DNA from: an uncultured Bacillota bacterium
GTDB taxonomy: Bacteria; Bacillota; Dehalobacteriia; UBA4068
DNA: 64,000 nucleotides
Reading direction: 5' to 3'
NCBI GenBank assembly: GCA_934271085.1
Contig: CAKQQU010000001.1
Location: 9,818 to 73,817, forward strand
The translations under genes were made by a program, and so were the position numbers. Below, piece after piece: positions 388 through 58,158 of the stretch (position 1 is the first letter of the stretch; every line of letters starts with the position of its first letter). Below the pieces are notes generated by a model that was given only the letters and a program-made list of their open reading frames with translations, searched no databases and was not told where the DNA came from.

Positions 388-559
388 TTTGTTTCCTTTC
401 GTAATTTTATATAATTAGCTTATTAGTAACAGCGATAAACGATAACTATAAATGTTATCAATATATTATATCATTCAAAAAGTTGTTGCGCAATATGTAT
501 AAAAGCTGTTAGCCGGGGGAATATTCAGGTTATGAAGTAAATATCAAAGAGGTGTTGAT

Positions 560-5038: not shown

Positions 5039-6127
5039 TTAAAACCCACCGCCGTATATAGCCAGCGGACCGTAATTATAACAGTACTGCAAAAGGCTGT
5101 TGATATCGTTTCCGTCGTATTCCAGATATTGCAGCCAGCCCAGGTCGTCCCAGATGCTGCCGGCGTCTTCCGGCAAATAATCCACCAGGGGATAGTCGTC
5201 GCCAAGATAATCCATAAGATCGCCCACAGCTTCTTCAAAGGTGCCTACTTCGTCTATCAAACCGTTGTTAAGGGCCTGGGTAGCTGTATACACACGCCCG
5301 TCCGCCAATGGTATAAGCTCTTCTTTGTCAATGGGACGGTGTTCCACTATCCAGTCCAGAAAATAACCGTAATACTCATCTATCATGGACTGGAAAATAG
5401 CGCGTGTGCTGTCTTTCATGGGTTCCAGATAACTGCCCATTGATTTTTGCTCGCCGCTGCTGATAGTATTGACCTTGATCCCGTAACGATCCAATAATAC
5501 GCTGACATCCAGCAAGCTGCCATAGGTAACGCCGATACTGCCGGTAGTGCAGAAGCGGTGGGCATAAATGCGATTGGCGGTACTGGCTATCCAGTAACCT
5601 GCAGAAGCCATGGTATTATGCCCATAGGCATATACCGGACGTTGGGTAAGCTGTTTGTATTCATCTATTTTCCGGGAAAGCTCATCGCAGGCCAATACCT
5701 CCCCGCCGGGAGTATCCAGATATATCATCAGCGCCGCATTGTTTTCGTCCCAAATCAGGCTGTCAATGGCATCCAGCAAAAATTGATGGTCATATTCACC
5801 GTTGTAGGTGCTGCTGATAGTGCCCTCCACATAAATACAGGCAACCGAAGGCTCTCCGGCAAAAGCAGGGGCAGGACCTTTGTCCCTGCCGGCCAGCACA
5901 GAGCATCCTACCACAATAAAGATCAGCACTACAGCGGCTGCTGTTATCCAGGGCCATAGCTTTCTTTTCTTTTTTTGCGGATAATAAGGGTGCTGGTAAT
6001 AGCTGCCGTAATATGGCTGCCCTTTCTGCTGGAAAGAGTTTGTTTCCTGTATATTTTTTGTATGATCGTTTATCTGAGTGTTGGCATCATTAGTTTTTTC
6101 ATTGCACAGATTGCTGTTTTGTTCCAT
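5039..6127 (-). CDS. sppA: signal peptide peptidase SppA (S49 family) with Gln/Tyr/Pro-rich N-terminal extension
   Basis: ClpP/crotonase-fold S49 motifs (IYLDTPGGEV..., GHNTMASAGYWIASTANRIYA) and one TM segment. ATG at 6127 has GAAAGAAGG upstream; an alternative TTG start at 6148 is possible. Confidence 0.7.
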   Translation of the reverse strand: MEQNSNLCNEKTNDANTQINDHTKNIQETNSFQQKGQPYYGSYYQHPYYPQKKKRKLWPWITAAAVVLIFIVVGCSVLAGRDKGPAPAFAGEPSVACIYVEGTISSTYNGEYDHQFLLDAIDSLIWDENNAALMIYLDTPGGEVLACDELSRKIDEYKQLTQRPVYAYGHNTMASAGYWIASTANRIYAHRFCTTGSIGVTYGSLLDVSVLLDRYGIKVNTISSGEQKSMGSYLEPMKDSTRAIFQSMIDEYYGYFLDWIVEHRPIDKEELIPLADGRVYTATQALNNGLIDEVGTFEEAVGDLMDYLGDDYPLVDYLPEDAGSIWDDLGWLQYLEYDGNDINSLLQYCYNYGPLAIYGGGF

Positions 6128-15879: not shown

Positions 15880-17709
15880 CTATTCGTTTTCCAGAGTTTT
15901 GGTCATGGCTGTAAAAATATCCAGGGCTTTTTTCAGCGGTTGGGTATCAGTCATATCTACTCCTGCCGCTTTCAGCAGATCAATAGGATCAGCGCTGCTT
16001 CCGGAGGAAAGAAAATGCAGGTAACGGTTGCGGGCTTCTTCTGCTTTAGCCGGGTCTTCAGCCAGCAGCCCGGCGGCCAGGGCGCTGGCTGCGCAAAAGC
16101 CTGTGGCATATTTATAAACATAATAGGCTCTGTAAAAATGGGGTATGCGCATCCATTCTTTGGAAATCCGCTGGTCTACATCTACCTGGGGCCCGAAATA
16201 ATCCAGGTTAAGCTGATAATAAATCTCGTCCATCTGGCGGGCGGTCAGTGATTCGCCGTTTTGGGCCAACAGATGTATTTTCAGCTCGAATTCGGCAAAC
16301 ATGGTTTGGCGGAATACCGTTCCCCGGAATTCTTCCAGATAATGGTTTACCAGATAATGCATTTCGTCTTTGCTGGCAGCATTTTTCAGCAGATAATCCA
16401 CAAGCAGGTTTTCATTTACCGTGCTGGCTACTTCCGCGACAAAGATGCGGTAATCGCTGTAAATATAGGGCTGATGACGGCGGGAATAAAGGGAATGCAT
16501 GGAATGGCCGGCCTCATGAGCCAAAGTGAAAACGCTGCTGAGGTTCTCCTTATAGTTCAGCAATATATAGGGATCAGTGCCATATACTCCTGATGAATAG
16601 GCTCCGGAGCTTTTACCTTTCGTCTCATAAACATCGACCCAGCCGTTATCTATGCCTTGCCGCAGTTCTCTGGTATATTCTTCGCCCAGAGGATAAAGTG
16701 CCTTTTCTACGATATTCTTAGCTTCCTGCCAGCTAAAGGTAAGCGGTAATTCCGGATATAACGGTACATACAGATCGTACATAGCCAGCTTATCAAGTCC
16801 CAGACGGCGGCGGCGTACTTCCAGATACCGCTGAAAAGCCGGCAAATAACTGCGCACGGTGGCAATAAGCTGATGATAAACATCCTGGGGGATATTATCC
16901 CCATCCAAAGACGCGGCCAAGGCATTTTCGTAACCCCGGGCACGGGCATAAAAGTTGTCTTTTTTTACCGAAGAACTGAGAGTGGCGCCAATGGTATTGG
17001 TATATTTGCCATAGGTATCATACAGCGCTTCATAAGCATTACGCCTTAACTGGCGGTCGGTAGATTGCAGCAGCAGAATATAATTGCCGGAAGAAAGCTG
17101 TATGCTTTTTCCGTTGCTGTCGGTCACCTGGGGGAATTCTATATCCGCATCGGTAAGCATGGAGTAAATGGTATCAAAGCTGCCTGCCATTTCTCCTGCT
17201 CCTGCCAGCAGTTTTTCCTGATCGGGGCTGAGGGTATGGGGTCTCATCCTGGTAATATCATTGATATAGCGCCTGTATATGCCAAGATCTTCCCGTTCCA
17301 GCCAGGACTGCAGCTTTTTCTCATCCATGGCCAGTATCTCCGGGGAGAAGAAAGAGAGCAGGACAGATGCTTCCACCGCAACTGATTCAGCGGCGCTGCG
17401 CATGGCCTGCGCTGCAGGATCGCCGTTATCTTCATCCTGCCTCATAGCGGCATAGACATAGACTTTTTCGATAAGCTGGGAAAGCTTTTCGTCCCAAGTC
17501 AGAAAATCCCTTAATTTTTCGGGGCTTTCAGCCAAATGCCCCTGAAACTCCTTTGCCTGGGGAAGCAGGGATTTTATTTTTTCCAGATCAGCCTTCCAGG
17601 AAGCTTCATCTGCATATATTTTATCTATGCGCCATTTATATTCCGGGGCTATTTTATCTCTGGTAGGTATTTTATCGCTCATGGGTATCCTCTTTTTACT
17701 GTTGATCAT
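15880..17709 (-). CDS. pepF: oligoendopeptidase F (M3B family)
   Basis: 609 aa with the HEAGHSMHS zincin motif. Confidence 0.85.
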
Positions 17710-19804
17710 TGCCGCGGGAATTTATTTTTTCCTGTATTGATTTATCTGCTTCCGCTGCCTCCGCAAAGATCCGCTCTTCCAGTGCTTTTACATTTGCCAG
17801 AATGTCTTCCAGCGAGATCGTATTCTCGCTGACTGCATCCGCAGGCTGCTGCGGTTTTGCCGCAAAGCTGTTTTCTGCAGTTGCGGTAGCCGGGGCATTG
17901 TGGACATTGGCGGCCGGATTATCATTTGATTTGCCGGTTTCCGTGTTTTCCGCAGCAGGCTGACTGCTCTCTTTGTTGGCTGCTGCCCTTTCGCAAATGG
18001 CGTTCTTGGCTTTATCGCGTTCCCGCCAGAGCCCCCTGGCAGCAGCTGCGGCATATGCATTAGCAGTGCTGGCACGATAAGCAGCTACCACATCAGGGTC
18101 GGGTTGACTATTAATAATAGGATGTGGCGTTACTGTGCTTTGCTGTGCGTATTCGCCTTTTACGGGAGCGGTGTCGCCGCTGTTATGATTCCAGAATTTT
18201 TCCTCATCTGTATTTTCTTTTTGATCCACCGGTTTTTCAGAAGCATTTTTTTCCAAATCTGCCAGCTCGTTAATGGCAGCCCCGCAAATAATGCAGAATG
18301 CAAATTCCGGCTGCAGCGGAGAGCCGCATACCGGACAGAATTTGTAGTTGTGTCCGGATCCTGCGTCTGCGATATCCTTGGGGAAATTATGTTCTTTAGT
18401 TTCTTCCGCAGGAAGGGAAGTTATGCCCGGCTCTGCTTTTGCGTCAGCATTTTCAGTCAGCGCTGAGATGGCAGCAGCATTCTGCAGTGCAGCTTCCTGT
18501 TTGGCTGCTTCTTTGGCAGCTTTGCGGCGGGCAAAAAAGCCTTTTTTATGTACAGGCTCGTCTTCTACTGCAGGCTGGGCTTCTGCTGCAGGCTCTGCCT
18601 CTGCCGCAGGCTGGGCTTCTACTGCAGGCTCTGCCTCTTCTGCAGGCTGGGCTTCTGCCGCAGGCTGGGCCTCTGCCACAGGCTGGGCCTCTGCCACAGG
18701 CTCGTCTTCTACTGCAGGTTCGGCTTCTGCTGCAGGCTCGTCTTCTACTGCAGGTTCGGCTTCTGCTGCAGGCTGGGCTTCTGCTGCAGGCTGCGCTTCT
18801 TCTGCAGGCTCGGCTTCTACTGCAGGTTCGGCTTCTGCTGCAGGCTCGTCTTCTACTGCAGGCTGGGCTTCTGCCGCAGGCTGGGCTTCCGGTTGGATGC
18901 GGGTGCCGCAGATAATACAGAAAGCACAATCAGATTCCAGACGGGCGCCGCATTCACGGCAAAGCCGTTCCGGATCATCCCGAAGGATCAGGGGCGGATC
19001 AGCTTCCTTTGTATCAGTCTCCTGCTGAGGTTCTGGATTTGTTTCAGGGGAGGTTATATCTTCGGTAACAAGGGTCTGAGCTGCTTCAGATACTTCTGCA
19101 GATTCCTCTTTATCAGAAATTTCATCGGGTATAAATTCTTCGGCGGCAGTTTGGCTGATAGTAGATCCTTCTGTATTTTCTGCGGGTTTTTCCTGCACGG
19201 GGTATTCGACTATAGCCGGTTCCTGCCAGAAATTATAAGCAGGAGCTGCCATTATTTTTTCCAGATCAAGGCTGTCCTTGTCGTCTGCATCCGGAGTTTC
19301 TTCCGCCTCGGCCGGTTCATTGTCAATATTTTCCTGTTCTGGGGAAGCTGTGGCGCTGGGTTCATTCGAAAAAACTTCGGTGGTATCTTCCTGCAGAATA
19401 GTGTTTTCCTGTGTGATATTTATATCAGACGTCTCTTCCTGGGGCTCATGCTCCATAGCCAAATCTTCCAAGGCTATTCTTTGCAGATCCGGAATAACTG
19501 TGGTAGTGCCCATTATATCCTGCTCGGTATTGTTTTCTTCGGGAGTGTTGTCGGCAGAATCTCCTGATTTTGTCAGTTCGCTGTTGACAAAAGCGGCTAT
19601 TTCCGCTCTTTCCTCATCGGATTTGGCGTTTTGATAAAGGCTGATTATGGCCGGATCGCCATATTCTTCCACAGCCTTTTCCCATTGATATCGGGGGGAG
19701 GCTGCCAGTTCCTTTTGCCCGGCCTTTTTAAAAAGGGCCAGCAACAGGATAATGGCAAGGATTCCGATTACCAGATAGATCACAGGAAGTAAGAAATTTA
19801 ACAT
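17696..19804 (-). CDS. membrane-anchored double zinc-ribbon protein with long acidic (P/A/E/Q) octapeptide repeat region
   Basis: N-terminal TM helix. Two CxxC-x(10-12)-CxxC zinc ribbons ([19 protein letters not shown] and [19 protein letters not shown]). About 20 copies of [24 protein letters not shown]. Confidence 0.55.
18556..18893. repeat. tandem array of ~24-bp repeats (CTGCAGGCTGGGCTTCTG... family) encoding the PAxEA octapeptide repeats
   Basis: Directly visible near-identical 24-nt units. They produce several spurious long ORFs on both strands. Confidence 0.8.
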
Positions 19805-24844: not shown

Positions 24845-24992
24845 AGGTGATTCCTGCCTTTCTAAGGTAATAAGCAATGCTTGCTTTGACAATTTATTTC
24901 GGCGGTAGGCCGCAAAAATTCAGGAAAATTCAAAAAAAATTAAAATTTATTGTATCAGTAATAGCATAAATTGTCAAATATTTTGTATCCGG

Positions 24993-38152: not shown

Positions 38153-38299
38153 ATATTTCCTCCATAATATGTTTATATGTATTTTTACTTTATGACAATC
38201 GGACTTATCAATTAATTATACCATCCCCGGGACTAAAGTCAAATAGCTGCCAGGTGATGAAATGCTGATTTATTGGCGAAATGTGATGTAAGCTGATAT

Positions 38300-48095: not shown

Positions 48096-48215
48096 TTTTA
48101 CCTCACGTATTATAATATTTTATTTTACATCATAGCCCTTAAAATGACAATGGGCAGGCAATTTCTCTTCTTTGCGGCATATATTGCAATGTAGCGCAAA
48201 GAAGGGGTGAGATAT

Positions 48216-48410
48216 ATGGGAAATAATTTTTTCGGCAAGGTGAAAAATTCCCTGACCAGTACCTTTGACCATTGTTTTGGAGAAAATATCGGCAATATAG
48301 TGTTGATGGTGGTAGCAGCCCTGCTGCTTATATCCCTTATGCTTTCGCCGGCTATTTTGATAGCGCTGGCTCTTTTCGGGCTTTTTTTATGGGCATTGCT
48401 TTATTGCTGA
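48216..48410 (+). CDS. small hydrophobic membrane protein, hypothetical (64 aa)
   Basis: ATG after GAAGGGGTGAG. One or two TM segments. Confidence 0.35.
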   Translation: MGNNFFGKVKNSLTSTFDHCFGENIGNIVLMVVAALLLISLMLSPAILIALALFGLFLWALLYC

Positions 48411-50306: not shown

Positions 50307-51800
50307 TTAGCCGGCGCTGCGTATCAGCTGTATGGTTTTGCCCAACTCACTGTCCAGCAGGGGTCGGCCGGTGAGGCAGCGCATATCCAGCTTCATATAA
50401 TCATCTTTGTTGACATTCAGCAGCAGCGCTCCGCTATAGCCGTCTTCATAATAGCTGTTATAATAATAGACCATGCCTTCCTGGGTCATTCCCAGATACG
50501 CTATGTTGCCCACCAGAATGGGGGAATCATATCCTGTCTGATCGGAATAGATGGTCAGGCTGGCTTCTCCGGGATATATATCTACAAAATAAAAGGTGTT
50601 TGCTGTGGAATAGCCCCAGGAATCGCAAATATTATATGGTAAGACGCTCCCTGCCGCAAGCGCCGGGTCAGTCAGCTCATGGCTTTGCCCTTGGGAATCG
50701 ACAGCAAAAACAGCGGCATATGAATTATCGCTGTTGGGACGGGCTTCAAAGGATACTATATCCCTTATCCCGGCCAGGCGCCCGCCGCAGACCAGATAGC
50801 CCGCCTGCAGCCCCATGCTGATATCTGCGTATTCCACATGGCCGTCCTCTGTAAGCAGGAAAAGATAGACAAAGTTGTCATTAACTATAGGACCTACAAA
50901 AATGTCGCTGTAATTATTATAGGCCCCCTGCAGCAGATAAGTACCGCTTTCCGCCCCCAGTGACGCCAGAAAATCAGCGCCTTCCGGGGTGTCTTCTATA
51001 TCAATAGTGATCTCGCCGCCTTCTAGTGTGGCGCGGACAGGGCCCCATTGGGAAGCTTTTTCCGGCTGGGATGGGGCGGCATTAACAGTAATAAGCTGAT
51101 AATACCAGCTTGCCCCTGCAATAGAGCCGATAGGCTGGGCCACTTCAAGCTGACCTTCATCGTTAAGATAAAGCAGTCCGTCTATGCTGATATTATCATT
51201 GCCAATAGTCCAGCTGCGCTGGATATAATTATCATAGTTTAATTCGCTGCCGTCAATATCGCCGTACATATCATCGAAGGTGTTGATTGCCGCTGCCCGC
51301 AGCTGGGTGAGAAACTCTTCCCGGCTAAGGCCTGCTATTGCCAGCAGCTGTTCATTGTCCAACTGTTCGTCTGCCTCAAAATCATAGTTGAATATGCAAT
51401 ATTCAGTATAGTCATTATCCATATATATGGCGATGACCAGTGAAAGCAGGCTGCCGTTCCAGTGGCTTTGCCAGTTGATGTTACTGGGAGTATAAAGCCA
51501 TCCCTGATCCATGTTATAGTGAGCTTCTTCCATTATAGGGTCAAAAACAGTCGCTATTTGCTGATTTATGCTCTCGGCTCCCGGGGTTTCTGCCAGAATC
51601 TGGGGAATGTGATAGGAATAATTCCAGGTATTGCCATAGGTGTCGGTAGCGCTGCCTTCTTCACTGTAAATTTCGCCGATCAGGCTGTCGTCATAGACGC
51701 TCTGGCTGTTGGGATCATCCGTCGGATCTTTGCCGCAGCCTGCCAGCAGTAAAGCTAGCATCATGGCTGCAATGGCAAGCAATAATAATTTATGTTTCAT
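50307..51800 (-). CDS. large lipoprotein, hypothetical (498 aa)
   Basis: Lipobox LLLAGCGKDP after MKHKLLLLAIAAMMLA. RBS AAAGGAGGAT. No recognisable catalytic motif. Long (~285 bp) ORF-free upstream region. Confidence 0.55.
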   Translation of the reverse strand: MKHKLLLLAIAAMMLALLLAGCGKDPTDDPNSQSVYDDSLIGEIYSEEGSATDTYGNTWNYSYHIPQILAETPGAESINQQIATVFDPIMEEAHYNMDQGWLYTPSNINWQSHWNGSLLSLVIAIYMDNDYTEYCIFNYDFEADEQLDNEQLLAIAGLSREEFLTQLRAAAINTFDDMYGDIDGSELNYDNYIQRSWTIGNDNISIDGLLYLNDEGQLEVAQPIGSIAGASWYYQLITVNAAPSQPEKASQWGPVRATLEGGEITIDIEDTPEGADFLASLGAESGTYLLQGAYNNYSDIFVGPIVNDNFVYLFLLTEDGHVEYADISMGLQAGYLVCGGRLAGIRDIVSFEARPNSDNSYAAVFAVDSQGQSHELTDPALAAGSVLPYNICDSWGYSTANTFYFVDIYPGEASLTIYSDQTGYDSPILVGNIAYLGMTQEGMVYYYNSYYEDGYSGALLLNVNKDDYMKLDMRCLTGRPLLDSELGKTIQLIRSAG

Positions 51801-52085
51801 GTTATCCTCCTTTTTGCTGTGGGCTGTCAGACTGAGTGAGCTGTCTGCTTTCGAGCATTTTCCACAATGCATTATCTACATTTTAGCCTAGGGAATAGGG
51901 GTTGTCACTAGCACTTTTGCCAGTTTGTTCTTAACCCGGCTTTGCCCCATCCTTTGCCGCTGTAGACAGAGCCCAGGTGCGGCTATAGACAGGTATATAT
52001 GGGCCTATGTTATTTTATTGGCGCTGTCTTTGGTCGGTGTATGGCCTGAATAGACCAGGGGCGGAGGCAGGCTTAAATACGGTAA

Positions 52086-52125
52086 TAAAAAGAGCAAGCC
52101 GCAGCAGCCAGCTTGCTCTTTTTAT
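52086..52125 (-). terminator. rho-independent terminator downstream of the GRE-operon SDR gene
   Basis: AAAAAGAGCAAGC-CGCAGCAGCCAG-CTTGCTCTTTTT. Confidence 0.75.
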
Positions 52126-52148: not shown

Positions 52149-52949
52149 TTATTTTTCGGGGTCGTAGGTGAAAACACGGGTGCAGGCCCAGCCGCCGTCT
52201 ACCAGGAAGGTCTGACCGGTGACGAATTTACCGGCTTCGCTGGCCAGGAAAAGGGCTATGCCCAGATAATCGTCAGTTTCGGACATTCTGCCCATGGGTA
52301 CCTGAGCGATAGCGGCATCCAGATAGGACTGGGGGCGCTGAGCCATCATGGGGGTGTTGATCCAGATGGGAGCGATACCGTTGACGGTGACGCCCTTGGG
52401 AGCCATTTCTACGGCAAAGAAACGGGTAGACTGCATAACGCCGGCTTTGCTCACTGCATAGGCCATAGCATCGTTGGCATTGACGGAGAAAGCATCGATG
52501 GAATTGTAATCGATGATGCGGCCCCAGCCATTCTTAACCATGACTTTACCGACTTCCTGATTGAGGAATATGGAGCCCAGCAGATTTGTCTCCAAAGTGC
52601 TTCTTAAGGTTTCTTCCCGGAATTTCAGGGTGTTTTCCACGAAGCAGTTAGCGGCAGTATGGATAAGTACGTCGATGCGGCCGTATCTTTTTTCTACCTC
52701 GGCTACCTTGGCAATGATATCGGCATGATCGGCAATATCCATCTGGATAGTATCAATAGTCAGGCCCTCGTCAGCCAGCATTTTTTTAACTTCTTCCAGT
52801 TGCTCGGCACGTCTGGTTGCCACAATGACTTTGGAGCCGTTTTTGGCAAAGCAGCGGGCATTGGCTTTGGCTACGCCGCCGCCGCCGGTGATCAGGACTA
52901 TTTTGCCGCTAACGTCAAACATGTTTTCGATCAGTTGCATATCTTTCAT
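52149..52949 (-). CDS. SDR-family NAD(P)-dependent oxidoreductase, last gene of the glycyl-radical-enzyme operon
   Basis: TGGGGVAKA Rossmann motif and YAVSK (YxxxK) catalytic motif. RBS GGAGGAAA, 23 nt after the activase stop. Confidence 0.8.
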   Translation of the reverse strand: MKDMQLIENMFDVSGKIVLITGGGGVAKANARCFAKNGSKVIVATRRAEQLEEVKKMLADEGLTIDTIQMDIADHADIIAKVAEVEKRYGRIDVLIHTAANCFVENTLKFREETLRSTLETNLLGSIFLNQEVGKVMVKNGWGRIIDYNSIDAFSVNANDAMAYAVSKAGVMQSTRFFAVEMAPKGVTVNGIAPIWINTPMMAQRPQSYLDAAIAQVPMGRMSETDDYLGIALFLASEAGKFVTGQTFLVDGGWACTRVFTYDPEK

Positions 52950-52972: not shown

Positions 52973-53890
52973 TTATATTCCTTGGCCGATGATCTCAGCC
53001 TTGATACCATATTGGGCAAATGTATCTTTGATTTCCAGCAAACGCTGATCTGTGGGCGGAGCATATTCCTGTACATCTCTGTCCAGGGAGCGTAATTTGG
53101 ATATGCCCAGCTTGTGATAGGGTATCAGTACTACATCCCGTATGTCCAGCCCATCCAGAAAAACGGCTGTATCTTCTATGATGGCAGGCGTATCATTCAT
53201 ATCCTTAAGCAGCGGCATCCGGATCTGGATCTTCTCCCGTAAGCCGGGCTCTCCGGAAAGCTTACGTAAATTTTCCAGGATCAGGCTGTTGCTTTGTCCG
53301 GCATATCTGAGATGCACTTCATCATCCAGGGATTTGATGTCGTAGAGGATGATCTGAGCCTGTGAGGCTATTTCCCGCAAATCTTCATATTTGCAAAAAC
53401 CGCTGGTATCGATGGCTACACGTATGCCTGCCTTTTGACAGGCAGCCAGCATTTCCCGGGCAAACCGGGGATGCTGCATGATCTCGCCGCCGGAAAGGGT
53501 CACTCCTCCATTGGTCTTGTCATAAAACTCTTTATCCTGCAATACCTGCTCCATGATCTGCTCTATGGTCATATAATTGGCAGACCAGCGCAGGGCGCCG
53601 CTGTAACACTGCTCCACACAGGCCCCGCAATCGCAGCACTTGTCCCTGAGTATCATAATGGGTTTATCTTTTCCCGGCTGCAGGGCGCCGCTGGGGCAGG
53701 CTTCTATACAGGCTCCGCAGGAAATACAACGGTTTTGGCTGTAAAATAACTCCCTTTCTGCGAACATCATTTCCGGATTATGACACCATTTGCAGCGCAG
53801 AGGACAGCCTTTGATAAAAACGGAGGTGCGTATGCCCGGACCGTCGGAAGTGGAAAATTTTTGGATGCCGCCAATGAGGTACTTTTGCAT
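52973..53890 (-). CDS. glycyl-radical enzyme activating protein (radical SAM, PflA family with two auxiliary ferredoxin-like [4Fe-4S] clusters)
   Basis: CPLRCKWCHNP radical-SAM CxxxCxxC. Additional CISCGACIEACP and CCDCGACVEQC clusters, typical of activases of non-PFL glycyl radical enzymes. RBS AAAGGAG directly after the GRE stop. Confidence 0.85.
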   Translation of the reverse strand: MQKYLIGGIQKFSTSDGPGIRTSVFIKGCPLRCKWCHNPEMMFAERELFYSQNRCISCGACIEACPSGALQPGKDKPIMILRDKCCDCGACVEQCYSGALRWSANYMTIEQIMEQVLQDKEFYDKTNGGVTLSGGEIMQHPRFAREMLAACQKAGIRVAIDTSGFCKYEDLREIASQAQIILYDIKSLDDEVHLRYAGQSNSLILENLRKLSGEPGLREKIQIRMPLLKDMNDTPAIIEDTAVFLDGLDIRDVVLIPYHKLGISKLRSLDRDVQEYAPPTDQRLLEIKDTFAQYGIKAEIIGQGI

Positions 53891-53899
53891 ATGGCTCCT

Positions 53900-56275
53900 T
53901 TAGCAGCTGTGTGCTGTCCTTCTGATAATATCTTCCTGAACATTACGGTCCAGATCGGTGAAGAAGGCTAAATATCCGGCAACCCGCACTACCAGACCGC
54001 GGTAAGCTTCCGGATTATCCATGGCTTTGCGTAAAGTAGCATCATCCACCACATTGATCTGAATATGCTCGCCGTAATGATCGAAGAAGGTTTTGACCAC
54101 GCCCTCGATGATCTCGGTGCCCCTCTCGCCCTCCAGACCGTTGGGATCAAAACGCAGGTTGAACAGGGTTCCATCGAAGGTGTGGAGCTGATCGATATTG
54201 GATACGGATTTTACAGTAGCAGTGGGCCCGGAAATATCCCGTCCGCCGGCGGGAGAAGCATTGTCGCTTAAGGGATCGCCTGCCAGACGACCGTCGGGGG
54301 TAGCGCCGCAGAACTCGCCAAAGAGCAGATTGATGGTTTGGGAGAGATTGCTGACGCAGTATTGGCCGCCCCGGGAATCCCGGAACTGCTGTACATAATC
54401 ACTGCAGGAAACTATGATATCCCTGTAGACTTTATCTACGGAAGGATTGTCATTACCGAATTTATTGGGACGGTTGATAAGCAGCTGACGCAGGCGTTCT
54501 TCTCCATCGTAATTGCTGTCGAGAATGGAGATCAGCTTATCCATGGGCACATTATGGTTCTGGAATACTGCGTAATCCAGCGCTTCGATAGCGTCAGCCA
54601 AGCTGGCCGGGCAGCTGAAGAAGACGCCGGTGTAGTTATGATGGCAGCCGCCTTCCTGTACGGAGATGCCCTTATCTATGCAATCATCCATTATCAGGGA
54701 GGAAAAGATCACCGGCAGCTGTACCGCATGGAAGGGAACTACCCGGTTATAGGCAGAGATAAGCAGATCAAACATATGCTTAAGCTGGGCGATGACCGCA
54801 TCCAACACATCCTGTTTGCAGGTAAAGCTTGCAGGGTCGCCGGTTTCAATGCCGGAGCGCTCGCCGCTGACCGGATCTATGCCATTGTGAAGCACCAGTT
54901 CCAGGGCTTTCATGGCATTGATATAGCCGCCGATGGGGCTGGCATCGGTGCCGCCGCCGCCGGGATGAGGCTCTACGCAGCCCACTACGCTCCAATCGCG
55001 GCATTCTTCCAGGGTGCCGCCTTTGGCTAGGCAGATGGGGATAGCGGCCTTGTCGTTAAAGAAAGCGGGATTGCCGAAGCCGGTCTGCACCATGCGCACG
55101 CCCTTTTTAAACAGATCTTCCGGGGTGCCTTCGTGGATGCGCAGGCCTACTGCGGGCTGATGAAGCTGCACTTCGTTTTGGGCCTCCAGGCACAGATAAG
55201 TGAGATCGTTGGTAGCGTCGTTGCCGTCTTTGTCAACGCCGCCCACCATCAGGATCTGCCACAGGGGGTAACCGGCGAATTTTTTGGCGTCCTCATTGCT
55301 GCGGACGATCAAAAGCTCGCTGGTCTTGATGTAGAAACATTCTATAAGTTCCAGAGCGTCGTCGGGAGTGATAACGCCCTGCTGGATATCTTTTTGATAA
55401 TAAGGCAGCATATACTGGTCATAACGGCCGAAACCGTTGCCGGCGCCGTTGGATTCTACATGAACCAGTAATTGCATGAACCAGACGAACTGTACTGCCT
55501 GCCAGAAGGTCTGGGGGGTATGCTCGGGTACTACCCGGCAGTTGGCGGCGATAGTCAGCAGCTCGCCCCGGCGCTTTTCGTCATCGGTGGCAGCCGCCAT
55601 TTGCTCGGCCAGATCGGCATAGCGATGGGCATAACGGATTATAGCTTCGCATTCGATAATGCAGGCGTTCCAAAAGTCCAGCTTTTCCCGTTCTTCTTTG
55701 GTAACGCCGGCTGTTTCAGATATTTTTTGGCGGCAGCGGTCTATATAGCCGCTGAGGCCTTCTTTCATCAGACGGGCATGATTGGGCATGGTGCCGCTGG
55801 AAGGCATGGTACGGTTGCCAACGATAATCATCCCCAGACGGCGGGCCTGCTGCACATCATCAGGGAGTATGGCTTCGATATTGTGTTCGGAGCTTTTGCC
55901 GAACCACCATGGCAGGTTTTCTTCCAGCAGGGCACGGTTTTCCGCGTCCAGTTCAAAGGGGTCTGTGGTGCGGGTCTGGATATTGTCCAGATTTTCCAGC
56001 AGCCATTCGGCCCGCATATATTCCGGATGGAAGGATACACCCCGCTGCTTTTTGGCCTGGCTGCCGATTACCAGTTCGCCCGGAAAGATCGACAGATCCA
56101 TATGGTCAAGCACATAGGCAAAAACATGAGCCCTGAATAAGGCCGGCGCTTCGCCGGAATATTTGATATATGCGTCTTTGGCCAATACTACCCATTCTGC
56201 GCTGAGATTGGGCCTGGCATCCAGCATATTTTCTTTAAGCATTCTGACTCTGTCTCTCACAGTGCATCCCTCCAT
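53900..56275 (-). CDS. glycyl radical enzyme, eliminase/dehydratase class (single catalytic Cys in GCVEP loop; glycyl motif RVAGY); substrate unknown
   Basis: 791 aa PFL-fold protein. C-terminal VVRVAGYLAFF glycyl radical motif. Cys loop VVGCVEPHPGGGG with Glu at +2 (CutC/HypD/glycerol-dehydratase-like, not the PFL CC pair). Alternative GTG start at 56260 (VRDRVRMLKENML) after GGAGGG may be the true start. Confidence 0.85.
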   Translation of the reverse strand: MEGCTVRDRVRMLKENMLDARPNLSAEWVVLAKDAYIKYSGEAPALFRAHVFAYVLDHMDLSIFPGELVIGSQAKKQRGVSFHPEYMRAEWLLENLDNIQTRTTDPFELDAENRALLEENLPWWFGKSSEHNIEAILPDDVQQARRLGMIIVGNRTMPSSGTMPNHARLMKEGLSGYIDRCRQKISETAGVTKEEREKLDFWNACIIECEAIIRYAHRYADLAEQMAAATDDEKRRGELLTIAANCRVVPEHTPQTFWQAVQFVWFMQLLVHVESNGAGNGFGRYDQYMLPYYQKDIQQGVITPDDALELIECFYIKTSELLIVRSNEDAKKFAGYPLWQILMVGGVDKDGNDATNDLTYLCLEAQNEVQLHQPAVGLRIHEGTPEDLFKKGVRMVQTGFGNPAFFNDKAAIPICLAKGGTLEECRDWSVVGCVEPHPGGGGTDASPIGGYINAMKALELVLHNGIDPVSGERSGIETGDPASFTCKQDVLDAVIAQLKHMFDLLISAYNRVVPFHAVQLPVIFSSLIMDDCIDKGISVQEGGCHHNYTGVFFSCPASLADAIEALDYAVFQNHNVPMDKLISILDSNYDGEERLRQLLINRPNKFGNDNPSVDKVYRDIIVSCSDYVQQFRDSRGGQYCVSNLSQTINLLFGEFCGATPDGRLAGDPLSDNASPAGGRDISGPTATVKSVSNIDQLHTFDGTLFNLRFDPNGLEGERGTEIIEGVVKTFFDHYGEHIQINVVDDATLRKAMDNPEAYRGLVVRVAGYLAFFTDLDRNVQEDIIRRTAHSC

Positions 56276-56317
56276 CTTTGGATTTACTTGCTATGTACTG
56301 TAATGTTAAAGCAATAT

Positions 56318-56341
56318 CAATATTGCAATATCATTATAGCA
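56318..56341 (-). promoter_or_regulatory. extended -10 promoter (TGCTATAAT) for the GRE gene, with an adjacent 12-bp perfect palindrome ATATTGCAATAT (candidate operator)
   Basis: On the minus strand: CATGCTATAATGATATTGCAATATTGATATTGC. The palindrome is at 56320-56331 and the -10 at 56338-56333. Confidence 0.45.
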
Positions 56342-56401
56342 TGTTTTAAATAAATGTTGAGCAGATTAATAATATTTTGACAAAGTTATTGAGAATTCCT
56401 A

Positions 56402-57886
56402 CTATTTAGCTTCTGCTTCGGCAGCTTTTTTCTCGGCATTAATCTGAGATTTGGGGCAGCCGATACCGGTGAGGGCTGTGATCAGTCCAAACAGAGGAGT
56501 AAGGAAGCCCATGAAATAATACATGAAGAACTGGCTCATGGGAACGCCGAAGCACTGAACTACGAAAACGCCGGAAACGCCCCAGGGAACGATGGGCTGC
56601 TGGACGCAGGCTGCATCGGAAATGGTACGGGACAGAACAGCGCGGTCAACATCCAGCTCCTCGTATTTATCACCCAAAGCATTGCAGGGGATAACGCCGC
56701 CGATGAAAGGATCGCCGGTCATGAAGCTCATTACGGTGCTGGAAGTGAAGGTGGAAACGATCAGGCTGAAACGGCTGCGGATGATATTGGCAATACGGTT
56801 TACCATGATGACCAGAACCTTGGTACGACCCAATACTGCGCCGAAGGAGAGAGAGCAGATCAACATAGTCATGTTGTAAACCATGCTGGTCATGCCGCCG
56901 CGGTTGCAGATGGAATCGACAACAGCGGAACCGGATTCGATGCTGAAACCGCCGTAGAGGCAGCCCAGAACTCCACCCAGGCTGGCGCCCTGAGCAAATA
57001 CCGCTACCAGAATGGCAGAAACGGCGCTGAGGATCAGGGAATGGGTGGCAGGCATCTTCATGATAATGGTGATAGCCAGAACTACCAGGGGGATCAGCAT
57101 GGAAATATTAAAGTTGAAGGTGTTGGCCAAACCGTCAATAATGGCCTGGATCTGAGACATATCGGTGGTATGTCCGCTGAACTGGAAGCCCATGATCAGG
57201 AAGATGACAAAGGATACCAGCAAAGCAGGGCCGGAGGTGTAAAGCATATAATGGCAATGACGGTAAATATTGGTTTTGGATACGCCGGCGGCAAATACGG
57301 CATAGTCGGAAATGGGGGACTGTTTGTCGCCGAAGAAAGCGCCGCAGACGATAGCGCCTACAGTCATGCCCAGGGGTATACCCAGGCCCATGGCGATACC
57401 GATGAAGGCCACGCCCAGGGTGCCGCAGGTAGTCCAGGAGGAACCGGTGGCAGTAGACAGGATAGCGCAGATCAGAACTACAAAGGCCAGGAACCAGGTG
57501 GGACTGATCAGTTTCAGGCCAAGATATACCAGGTAAGGAATAGTACCGCTGGCCACCCAGGAGGCGATCAGGATACCGATAGACAACAGGATGAGGAAAG
57601 GAATGTCACCCATGGCTTTCAACATGGATTTCTCCAGATCTACCAGAGAAATATGCAGCACCAGGCGACCGTACAGGGTAACTACGATGACGGCGGCGAT
57701 CAGCGGTACATGAGCGGAGAGGCCCAGCCCCAGGATGCCGAACATCAGAATAGCAGCAGTCAGAAGAAAGACCACGATGGACATGCCCAGCGTGCCCTCT
57801 CGTTCAGGTTTTTTGATTTTTTGGGGCTTTTTTTCCTGAACTTCTTCTGCCGCTGCTTCAGCATTCAGTTCTTTGTTTTCTTCCAT
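56402..57886 (-). CDS. NhaC-family transporter (Na+/H+ antiporter / substrate:cation antiporter family), first gene of the GRE locus
   Basis: 494 aa, ~12 TM, NhaC/MleN-like sequence. RBS GAAGGGAG. Acidic N-terminal tail. Confidence 0.75.
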   Translation of the reverse strand: MEENKELNAEAAAEEVQEKKPQKIKKPEREGTLGMSIVVFLLTAAILMFGILGLGLSAHVPLIAAVIVVTLYGRLVLHISLVDLEKSMLKAMGDIPFLILLSIGILIASWVASGTIPYLVYLGLKLISPTWFLAFVVLICAILSTATGSSWTTCGTLGVAFIGIAMGLGIPLGMTVGAIVCGAFFGDKQSPISDYAVFAAGVSKTNIYRHCHYMLYTSGPALLVSFVIFLIMGFQFSGHTTDMSQIQAIIDGLANTFNFNISMLIPLVVLAITIIMKMPATHSLILSAVSAILVAVFAQGASLGGVLGCLYGGFSIESGSAVVDSICNRGGMTSMVYNMTMLICSLSFGAVLGRTKVLVIMVNRIANIIRSRFSLIVSTFTSSTVMSFMTGDPFIGGVIPCNALGDKYEELDVDRAVLSRTISDAACVQQPIVPWGVSGVFVVQCFGVPMSQFFMYYFMGFLTPLFGLITALTGIGCPKSQINAEKKAAEAEAK

Positions 57887-58049
57887 TAGAATACTCCCTT
57901 CGTAAAAATGATTTGAGAAATAAGTTCATAGCTGATTCAGCAAAACTCCCACTTGCTTTGCTGAATCCGGCCTATGCCAAGGGGATTTCTCCCAAAATTC
58001 AGAAGCATACACAAAATGTGTATTTTATCTGAAAGTTCTTAGCTATCAT

Positions 58050-58078
58050 ATAATAATAAAATTTCAGTAATGTGTCAA
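58050..58078 (-). promoter_or_regulatory. sigma-A type promoter for the NhaC transporter gene (TTGACA-N17-TATTAT)
   Basis: Minus-strand hexamers. A ~165-nt leader follows, containing a 17-bp palindrome ATACACAAAATGTGTAT (57999-58015) and a 10-bp-stem hairpin (57943-57975). Confidence 0.45.
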
Positions 58079-58158
58079 GTTAAAGCGCTTATTGTCGGAT
58101 AATATCATTAATTTGTTTGAAATATGCTATAATGATAAATGACGAGAAAGGATAAAAT

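Follow-up and report, generated by a model that had tools for sequence, protein, structure and literature searches.

A species-specific spacer with a putative secondary promoter and a 14-bp tandem repeat ahead of a glycyl radical enzyme gene in an uncultured Bacillota bacterium

Introduction

Are the enzyme genes of a glycyl radical enzyme (GRE) operon expressed only together with the transporter gene that precedes them, or does the region between the two hold a promoter of its own, and does the perfect palindrome in this region serve as its operator? The question is raised by a locus of an uncultured Bacillota bacterium, which we analyzed within a stretch of 64,000 nucleotides (64 kb), hereafter called the window. 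A preliminary description had proposed an internal promoter on the minus strand between the transporter and GRE genes, with a palindrome and a repeated half-site laid out as an operator over the transcription start. It had also suggested that the unit of GRE, activase and SDR genes is substrate-inducible independently of the transporter. All sequence elements named in that description are found on the minus strand at the coordinates given for them. Their interpretation is the subject of the following sections.

Operon context and start of the GRE gene

The genes concerned form an operon on the minus strand, which runs from a promoter candidate in the divergent trmO/nhaC intergenic region to an intrinsic terminator behind the SDR gene. 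Its features are the following:

58050..58078, minus strand: candidate for the primary operon promoter, TTGACA-17-TATTAT (11/12), in the divergent trmO/nhaC intergenic region
56402..57886, minus strand: gene of an NhaC-family transporter, 494 aa (Pfam Na_H_antiporter, TIGR00931)
56261..56401, minus strand: nhaC-GRE spacer, 141 nt, 28% GC, species-specific (15-49 nt in orthologues)
56258..56273, minus strand: ribosome-binding site (RBS) GGAGGG (56273..56268) and probable GTG start (56260..56258) of GRE
53900..56260, minus strand: GRE gene, of an uncharacterised clade (Pfam PFL-like and Gly_radical)
52973..53890, minus strand: gene of the GRE-activating radical-SAM enzyme (TIGR02494)
52149..52949, minus strand: SDR oxidoreductase gene, the last of the operon
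about 52085..52123, minus strand: intrinsic terminator (AAAAAGAGCAAGC ... GCTTGCTCTTTTT) closing the operon

The GRE reaches none of the NCBIfam equivalog cut-offs (HypD, CutC, HpsG/HpfG, PflD and others), and its nearest solved structure is HplG, trans-4-hydroxy-D-proline lyase (7vua, E = 1.7e-173). The SDR resembles gluconate-5-dehydrogenase. Kinship to HplG, combined with an SDR and a transporter of NhaC type (or of TRAP type, in the related locus L063), suggests an uncharacterised GRE substrate; that this is a hydroxy acid is a guess. No paper linking a GRE, an SDR and NhaC was found in the searched literature. Some other features lie around these genes. Downstream of the operon terminator is a 521-aa ORF (50307-51872, minus strand) without a Pfam or NCBIfam match. 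In the nhaC leader, a perfect 7-3-7 inverted repeat, ATACACAtttTGTGTAT, occupies 58007-58023 (minus strand; ~+21 to +37 relative to the nhaC promoter), and one of its pairs is broken by a C/T polymorphism at 58011 in three contigs. The leader also contains a hairpin with an 11-bp stem (GATTCAGCAAA ... TTTGCTGAATC; 57934-57967, minus strand), about 50 nt before the start codon.

The transporter gene ends with a TAG stop codon at 56404..56402 (minus strand). The preliminary description placed the gap behind this codon correctly, but its length of 126 nt depends on an ATG at 56275 as the start of GRE. This ATG has no ribosome-binding site. The sole Shine-Dalgarno sequence, GGAGGG (56273..56268), is situated 7 nt ahead of a GTG at 56260. 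In addition, the GRE protein is 786 aa long in 9 out of 12 database versions, and the alignments of orthologues to it begin at residue 5-8. Because of this ribosome-binding site, the 786-aa versions and the orthologue alignments, GRE probably starts at GTG 56260 and not at ATG 56275, in which case the gap measures 141 nt (56401..56261) rather than 126 nt.

No terminator (a G+C-rich hairpin with a T run behind it) is present in 56261..56401; the only strong one follows the SDR gene. In view of the lack of a terminator-like site between nhaC and GRE, read-through from the nhaC promoter is expected and an internal promoter would add to it, which speaks against a GRE unit that is independent of the transporter. 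The earlier remark that the locus encodes no regulator is correct for this window, as a regulator gene was found neither near the operon, in the genes that flank it, nor in the small ORFs that were sampled.

A putative promoter in the spacer

On the minus strand, the spacer comprises an extended -10 element preceded by a -35-like hexamer:

56355..56360, minus strand: -35-like hexamer TCAACA (4/6), followed by a 16-nt spacer
56333..56341, minus strand: extended -10 element TGCTATAAT
56324..56327, minus strand: transcription start predicted from promoter geometry, ~7 nt past the -10 element, with a leader of ~66 nt
58111..58137, plus strand: trmO core promoter ATTTGTTTGAAATATGCTATAATGATA, 24/27 identical to 56355..56329 of the minus strand

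The match has the features of an extended -10 promoter of the sigma-70/SigA class, namely a TATAAT hexamer with TG at -15/-14. It also has a -35 hexamer, TCAACA, within the 16-18 nt expected for this class (at 16 nt) and an overall match above chance; the -35 element itself is weak (4/6). The combination TCAACA-16-TGCTATAAT is among five sites in the 64 kb with at least 10/12 matches plus the TG, compared to 0.77 ± 0.82 in shuffled sequences, and so good a match on the sense strand of the shuffled spacer has a probability of P = 0.006. Of the other sites of that class, two lie in intergenic gaps ahead of genes (38242..38215 and 24977..24949), and a third (5103..5075) falls within an ORF, in its 3' end and ahead of the gene that follows. 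Promoter-like strings arise easily in AT-rich spacers, and matches are present on both strands here. The plus strand of the spacer contains TTGACA-17-TACTAT (10/12; 56377-56405), directed antisense into the 3' end of nhaC, which could be a chance match in AT-rich DNA.

The core of the spacer element (56355..56329; ATTTATTTAAAACATGCTATAATGATA) is identical in 24 of 27 positions to the core promoter of the divergent trmO gene. The score of this alignment is reached by 0 out of 2000 shuffles (E = 0.007 in the window), and the trmO core is the only notable match to the spacer within the window. The -10 element of trmO ends 26 nt before the trmO ATG. Because trmO needs a promoter exactly at this place, the trmO promoter must be real, and likeness to it supports the GRE element as a working promoter. 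The spacer core is either a local copy of the trmO promoter or an instance of a promoter architecture that both share. The two cores part right after GATA, where a 14-bp duplication begins in the spacer.

One tandem repeat behind the palindrome and the repeated half-site

The region around the predicted start is built as follows:

56310..56341, minus strand: tandem repeat with a 14-bp period, consisting of GCTATAATGATATT, GCAATATTGATATT and GC (Tandem Repeats Finder: 2.3 copies, 83% match)
56320..56331, no strand assigned: perfect 12-bp palindrome ATATTGCAATAT where repeat units 1 and 2 meet, at ~-5 to +7 of the predicted start
56311..56326, no strand assigned: 7-2-7 inverted repeat GCAATAT-TG-ATATTGC, at ~+1 to +16 of the predicted start

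The palindrome had been described as following the -10 element immediately; its position is right, although a single base (G 56332) separates it from TATAAT. The half-site TGATATTGC occurs at 56333..56325, where it shares the last T of the -10 element, and as a direct repeat at 56319..56311 (minus strand). Palindrome and direct repeat had been treated as separate features. They are a single one, as Tandem Repeats Finder assigns both to one array with a 14-bp unit. This array starts within the -10 element, and unit 1 includes the -10 hexamer. Dyad axes recur every 7 bp (GCTATAA-TG-ATATTGC, ATATTG/CAATAT, GCAATAT-TG-ATATTGC) because the repeated 14-bp unit is nearly self-complementary.

The palindrome by itself is not unusual. 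Perfect palindromes of at least 12 bp occur 18 times in the window, compared to 20.5 ± 4.6 times in dinucleotide shuffles, and at least one is expected in the shuffled 28%-GC spacer with P = 0.096. A palindrome together with a 9-nt repeat within 20 nt is rarer (P = 0.0017 against shuffles), and one short tandem duplication by slippage accounts for both just as well. Short tandem duplications are common in the window, which contains 68 other nearby 9-mer repeat pairs, many of them overlapping inside the same repeats. Dense repeats with an 18-nt period are found at 18568-18780 inside a 702-aa ORF (17696..19804, minus strand).

Further copies of the palindrome, which might have outlined a regulon, do not exceed expectation in the 64-kb window: six copies with at most two mismatches are present where 6.4 are expected, and none is located at the nhaC promoter. 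The half-site with at most one mismatch is found 46 times (26 expected), scattered and mostly within long ORFs, which makes this excess uninformative with respect to a regulon. The sole intergenic copy of the palindrome with one mismatch, ATATTGCAATGT (48181-48192), is contained in the loop of a hairpin of 10 bp (CTTCTTTGCG ... CGCAAAGAAG; 48165-48215), just 5' of a small ORF that starts at 48217 and apparently encodes a hydrophobic peptide of ~60 aa. In the searched literature, the palindrome was not found as a reported binding site; the exact 12-mer is mentioned there only in connection with eukaryotes or primers, in unrelated contexts.

Orthologous operons

The same gene order, nhaC-GRE-activase-SDR, is found in six other species (L001/L027, L041, L042/43, L044-46 and L062). 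Protein identities amount to 66-75% for GRE, 68-74% for nhaC, 52-59% for the activase and 71-80% for full-length SDRs. The nhaC-GRE gap in these six orthologous operons is 15-49 nt long and holds an RBS only, so the spacer of the window is ~100 nt longer than that of any orthologous operon. In L063, whose GRE is 63% identical, a TRAP transporter and an SDR precede GRE instead. Conservation of the palindrome in orthologous loci would have been expected of an operator according to the preliminary description. The palindrome is absent from L001, L027, L041-L046, L062, L063 and all more distant GRE loci. In the databases searched, no relative has an identity of 76-98%: a protein search gave relatives only at 99% or at 75% and below, and genome and metagenome scans revealed no relative closer than 75%. 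The nearest relatives are metagenome-assembled genomes of Oscillospiraceae and other Clostridia. As far as these comparisons reach, the spacer, its predicted promoter and the palindrome appear to be innovations of this species.

The orthologous operons also comprise two genes that the window lacks:

L041 7335-7859: ORF of ~175 aa right after SDR
L044 8697-9239: ORF of ~175 aa right after SDR
L001 10258-10779: ORF of ~175 aa right after SDR
L041 866-1486: gene of a ~200-aa protein ahead of nhaC
L044 2390-3001: gene of a ~200-aa protein ahead of nhaC
L042 3016-3498: gene of a ~200-aa protein ahead of nhaC
L001 3849-4517: gene of a ~200-aa protein ahead of nhaC

The ORF after SDR is present in the four orthologous operons whose downstream sequence can be read (L001, L041, L044-46); the remaining contigs stop before its position. 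It is confirmed as a regulator with HTH_3 (XRE) and Cupin_2 domains in L041 and L044-46, and the ORF of L001 has the same size and position. This HTH-cupin regulator is a natural candidate for the substrate sensor of the GRE pathway. The protein ahead of nhaC (160-220 aa, no Pfam family) is conserved in most orthologous operons and absent from the window and L062. It carries an N-terminal motif N(L/I)C(V/M)QAFQE and a C-terminal motif VQLxLQLxPV. A tblastn search of the window for remnants of the regulator or of the ~200-aa gene returned nothing below E = 0.8.

Two of the orthologous operons have a perfect palindrome of their own in common. ACAAGTACTTGT is located at the upstream operon promoter in both L001 (3841-3852), where it lies 5 nt past a TACTAT -10 element, and L041 (802-813), where it overlaps TTGACA. 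The window does not contain it, even when two mismatches are allowed. As an operator candidate, ACAAGTACTTGT is better supported than the palindrome of the window.

Variation within the species

To compare the spacer with its surroundings, 17 conspecific contigs (98.1-100% identical) were aligned, with a mean of 16 sequences per spacer position, window included. At the 4-fold degenerate sites of nhaC and GRE, 57 out of 626 vary (9.1%). Only 2 of the 141 spacer sites do so (P = 0.0001-0.0002 compared to the 4-fold sites), which corresponds to a diversity ~6 times lower. Both variable sites, 56300 and 56286, fall in the leader, past the repeat. Between the nhaC stop codon and the last base of the repeat, a stretch of 92 nt, all sites are invariant, where 8.4-8.8 variable ones are expected (P = 0.0001-0.0002), and the palindrome is unchanged in all 15 conspecific contigs that cover it. 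Mutational bias was considered as a cause of the low spacer diversity and rejected, since A/T and G/C 4-fold sites are polymorphic to a similar extent (9.9% vs 8.7%). The spacer thus appears to be under purifying selection within the species. This is not specific to the spacer, as the divergent nhaC/trmO region is equally constrained (6 out of 272 sites vary). Neither can the low polymorphism be localised to the repeat, with P = 0.11 for the 23 nt past the -10 element and P = 0.047 for the whole 32-nt array.

RNA-level and mobile-element checks

With a start at ~56326, the first 16 nt of the transcript would fold as GCAAUA-UUGA-UAUUGC, which amounts to a weak 5'-terminal hairpin of 6 bp. Neither the whole spacer (z = 0.18) nor the leader (z = -0.64) folds better than shuffled sequences. 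A search of 47-60 kb against Rfam in E-value mode gave no relevant family and only a sub-threshold microRNA match (E = 0.13). A cis-regulatory RNA (riboswitch, leader or attenuator) is supported neither by these folds nor by an Rfam match. A remnant of a mobile element was rejected: viral contigs contain no exact match, and plasmids and phages only short chance matches.

Discussion

The spacer probably holds an extra promoter that is found only in this species. The internal promoter that the preliminary description placed ahead of GRE is the part of it that stands, as far as can be judged from the sequence: it is supported by the quality of the match (P = 0.006), the likeness to the trmO promoter (24/27), a spacer that is ~100 nt longer than elsewhere and low polymorphism. 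That the promoter actually fires we rate at somewhat more than an even chance. The best explanation in our opinion, with a probability just above one half, is a secondary promoter whose symmetry is derived from a duplication. A 141-nt AT-rich spacer, confined to this species, would have been inserted in the otherwise tightly packed nhaC-GRE-activase-SDR operon and would carry a secondary extended -10 promoter for the housekeeping sigma factor, TCAACA-16-TGCTATAAT. Judging from promoter geometry, transcription would begin near 56326, ~66 nt before the GTG of GRE. GRE, activase and SDR would then be transcribed from two sources, i.e., read-through from nhaC and the internal start, which may raise the expression of the enzymes relative to the transporter. 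The 14-bp unit over the -10 region would have been duplicated in tandem, with the symmetry as a by-product. Binding of a regulator to the symmetric block is possible.

Such binding is central to an alternative that we consider doubtful, in which the palindrome/repeat block (~-12 to +16) acts as operator for a dimeric regulator whose gene lies elsewhere, and the promoter is substrate-inducible or repressible. The dyad symmetry spans the predicted start, by its geometry a classic position for a repressor. The two substitutions in unit 2 (GCTATAAT to GCAATATT) seem to be exactly those that perfect the junction palindrome, and no variation occurs in the 32-nt array among the conspecific contigs covering it (P≈0.047). 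Moreover, L001 has a different perfect palindrome, ACAAGTACTTGT, at the same position just past the -10 element of its operon promoter, so an operator over the start may be the rule in this family of operons. The palindrome of the window, however, is at chance level when taken alone (18 vs 20.5 in the window, P≈0.10 in the spacer) and is fully accounted for by the tandem duplication. Its near copies in the window are also at chance level (6 vs 6.4), with none at the nhaC promoter, and it is missing from every orthologous locus. Neither the flanking genes nor the small ORFs sampled in the window include a recognizable regulator gene, and the searched literature does not report the sequence as an operator. 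To our knowledge, it also fits none of the Fur/PerR 7-1-7, Rex, CcpA cre, CodY, FNR/CRP or LacI-type consensus sequences. The operator function originally attributed to the palindrome is thus not borne out. A more specific version of this alternative, quite unlikely in our view, would be that the HTH-cupin regulator was lost, that a promoter of trmO type was copied before GRE, and that the 14-bp duplication and its two substitutions yielded a new operator for a regulator encoded elsewhere. If true, this would be a recent and traceable birth of a promoter and operator that rewires an uncharacterised gut GRE pathway.

Conversely, the spacer may be mere AT-rich filler from local rearrangement or slippage, with only the nhaC promoter active and all promoter matches coincidental. 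All orthologues manage with 15-49 nt, an internal promoter is unneeded where no upstream terminator is present, AT-rich DNA gives promoter-like matches on both strands, and short tandem duplications are common in the window. Yet so good a promoter match is infrequent in the shuffled spacer (P = 0.006), the core is identical to the trmO promoter in 24/27 positions, and a diversity ~6 times below that of 4-fold sites among 17 conspecific contigs is unexpected of filler, which makes this explanation unlikely. The repeat may also act in the RNA, either as a 5' stem-loop that shields the GRE mRNA from decay dependent on the 5' end or through a -10-like unit 2 that causes promoter-proximal sigma-dependent pausing. 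Stabilising 5'-terminal stem-loops exist in Bacillota, as in the ermC and aprE leaders, and a start at ~56326 would put the stem-loop exactly at the 5' end of the transcript. We nevertheless regard a role in the RNA as very improbable: the hairpin is weak with six A/U-rich pairs, folding is at the level of shuffles (z = -0.64 for the leader, z = 0.18 for the spacer), no Rfam family matches, and the element offers no covariation to draw on, being identical throughout the species and missing elsewhere.

As a secondary promoter, the GRE-spacer element adds a further example to a class of elements that is very familiar. Extended -10 promoters (TGnTATAAT), recognized by the housekeeping sigma factor (sigma-70 / SigA), are common in Gram-positive bacteria. 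Like them, the spacer element combines a perfect TATAAT, a TG one base ahead of it and a weak -35 at a distance of 16 nt; the region upstream is A/T-rich, and the predicted ~66-nt leader ends in a strong RBS. It differs from the class in that it occurs in one species only and is predicted from sequence. In E. coli, focA-pflB is transcribed from several promoters, some of them inside focA, that raise the expression of the GRE above that of the transporter and depend on FNR and ArcA with mapped sites. Both loci have a transporter gene followed by a GRE gene without a terminator in between, and a candidate extra start just before the enzyme gene. On the other hand, no site resembling those of FNR or CRP can be seen in the present locus, whose transporter and enzyme belong to families other than those of focA-pflB. 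Operators that overlap a start (LacI O1, LexA boxes, TetR/MarR-type) are comparable insofar as the dyads span ~-5 to +7 and +1 to +16 of the predicted start. Unlike in those operators, no cognate regulator, second site or conservation is found, and the symmetry comes from the 14-bp duplication. Finally, the orthologous layout is [~200-aa unknown protein]-nhaC-GRE-activase-SDR-[HTH_3+Cupin_2 regulator], of which the window shares the four core genes in the same order. It lacks the ~200-aa gene, the regulator gene and ACAAGTACTTGT, and its spacer measures 141 nt compared to 15-49 nt.

If the promoter is real, GRE, activase and SDR could be expressed above, or apart from, the transporter, while the operon of the relatives is one tightly coupled unit. 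It would also be a small example of regulatory rewiring after the loss of a locally encoded regulator. No new mechanism is revealed, and the element is of no help toward the GRE substrate. More useful leads on this GRE clade are contained in the orthologous operons, i.e., the HTH-cupin regulator, the ~200-aa protein and the ACAAGTACTTGT palindrome.

A minor observation relates to the sequence past the -10 element at other sites. At two other extended -10 promoters of the window (465-473 and 38215-38223, minus strand; TATAATataTTGATAAC and TATAATtaaTTGATAAG), TTGATAA follows three bases past TATAAT, and TTGATA is also part of the GRE repeat. The shared TTGATA(A) may reflect a preference in the start region or a coincidence.
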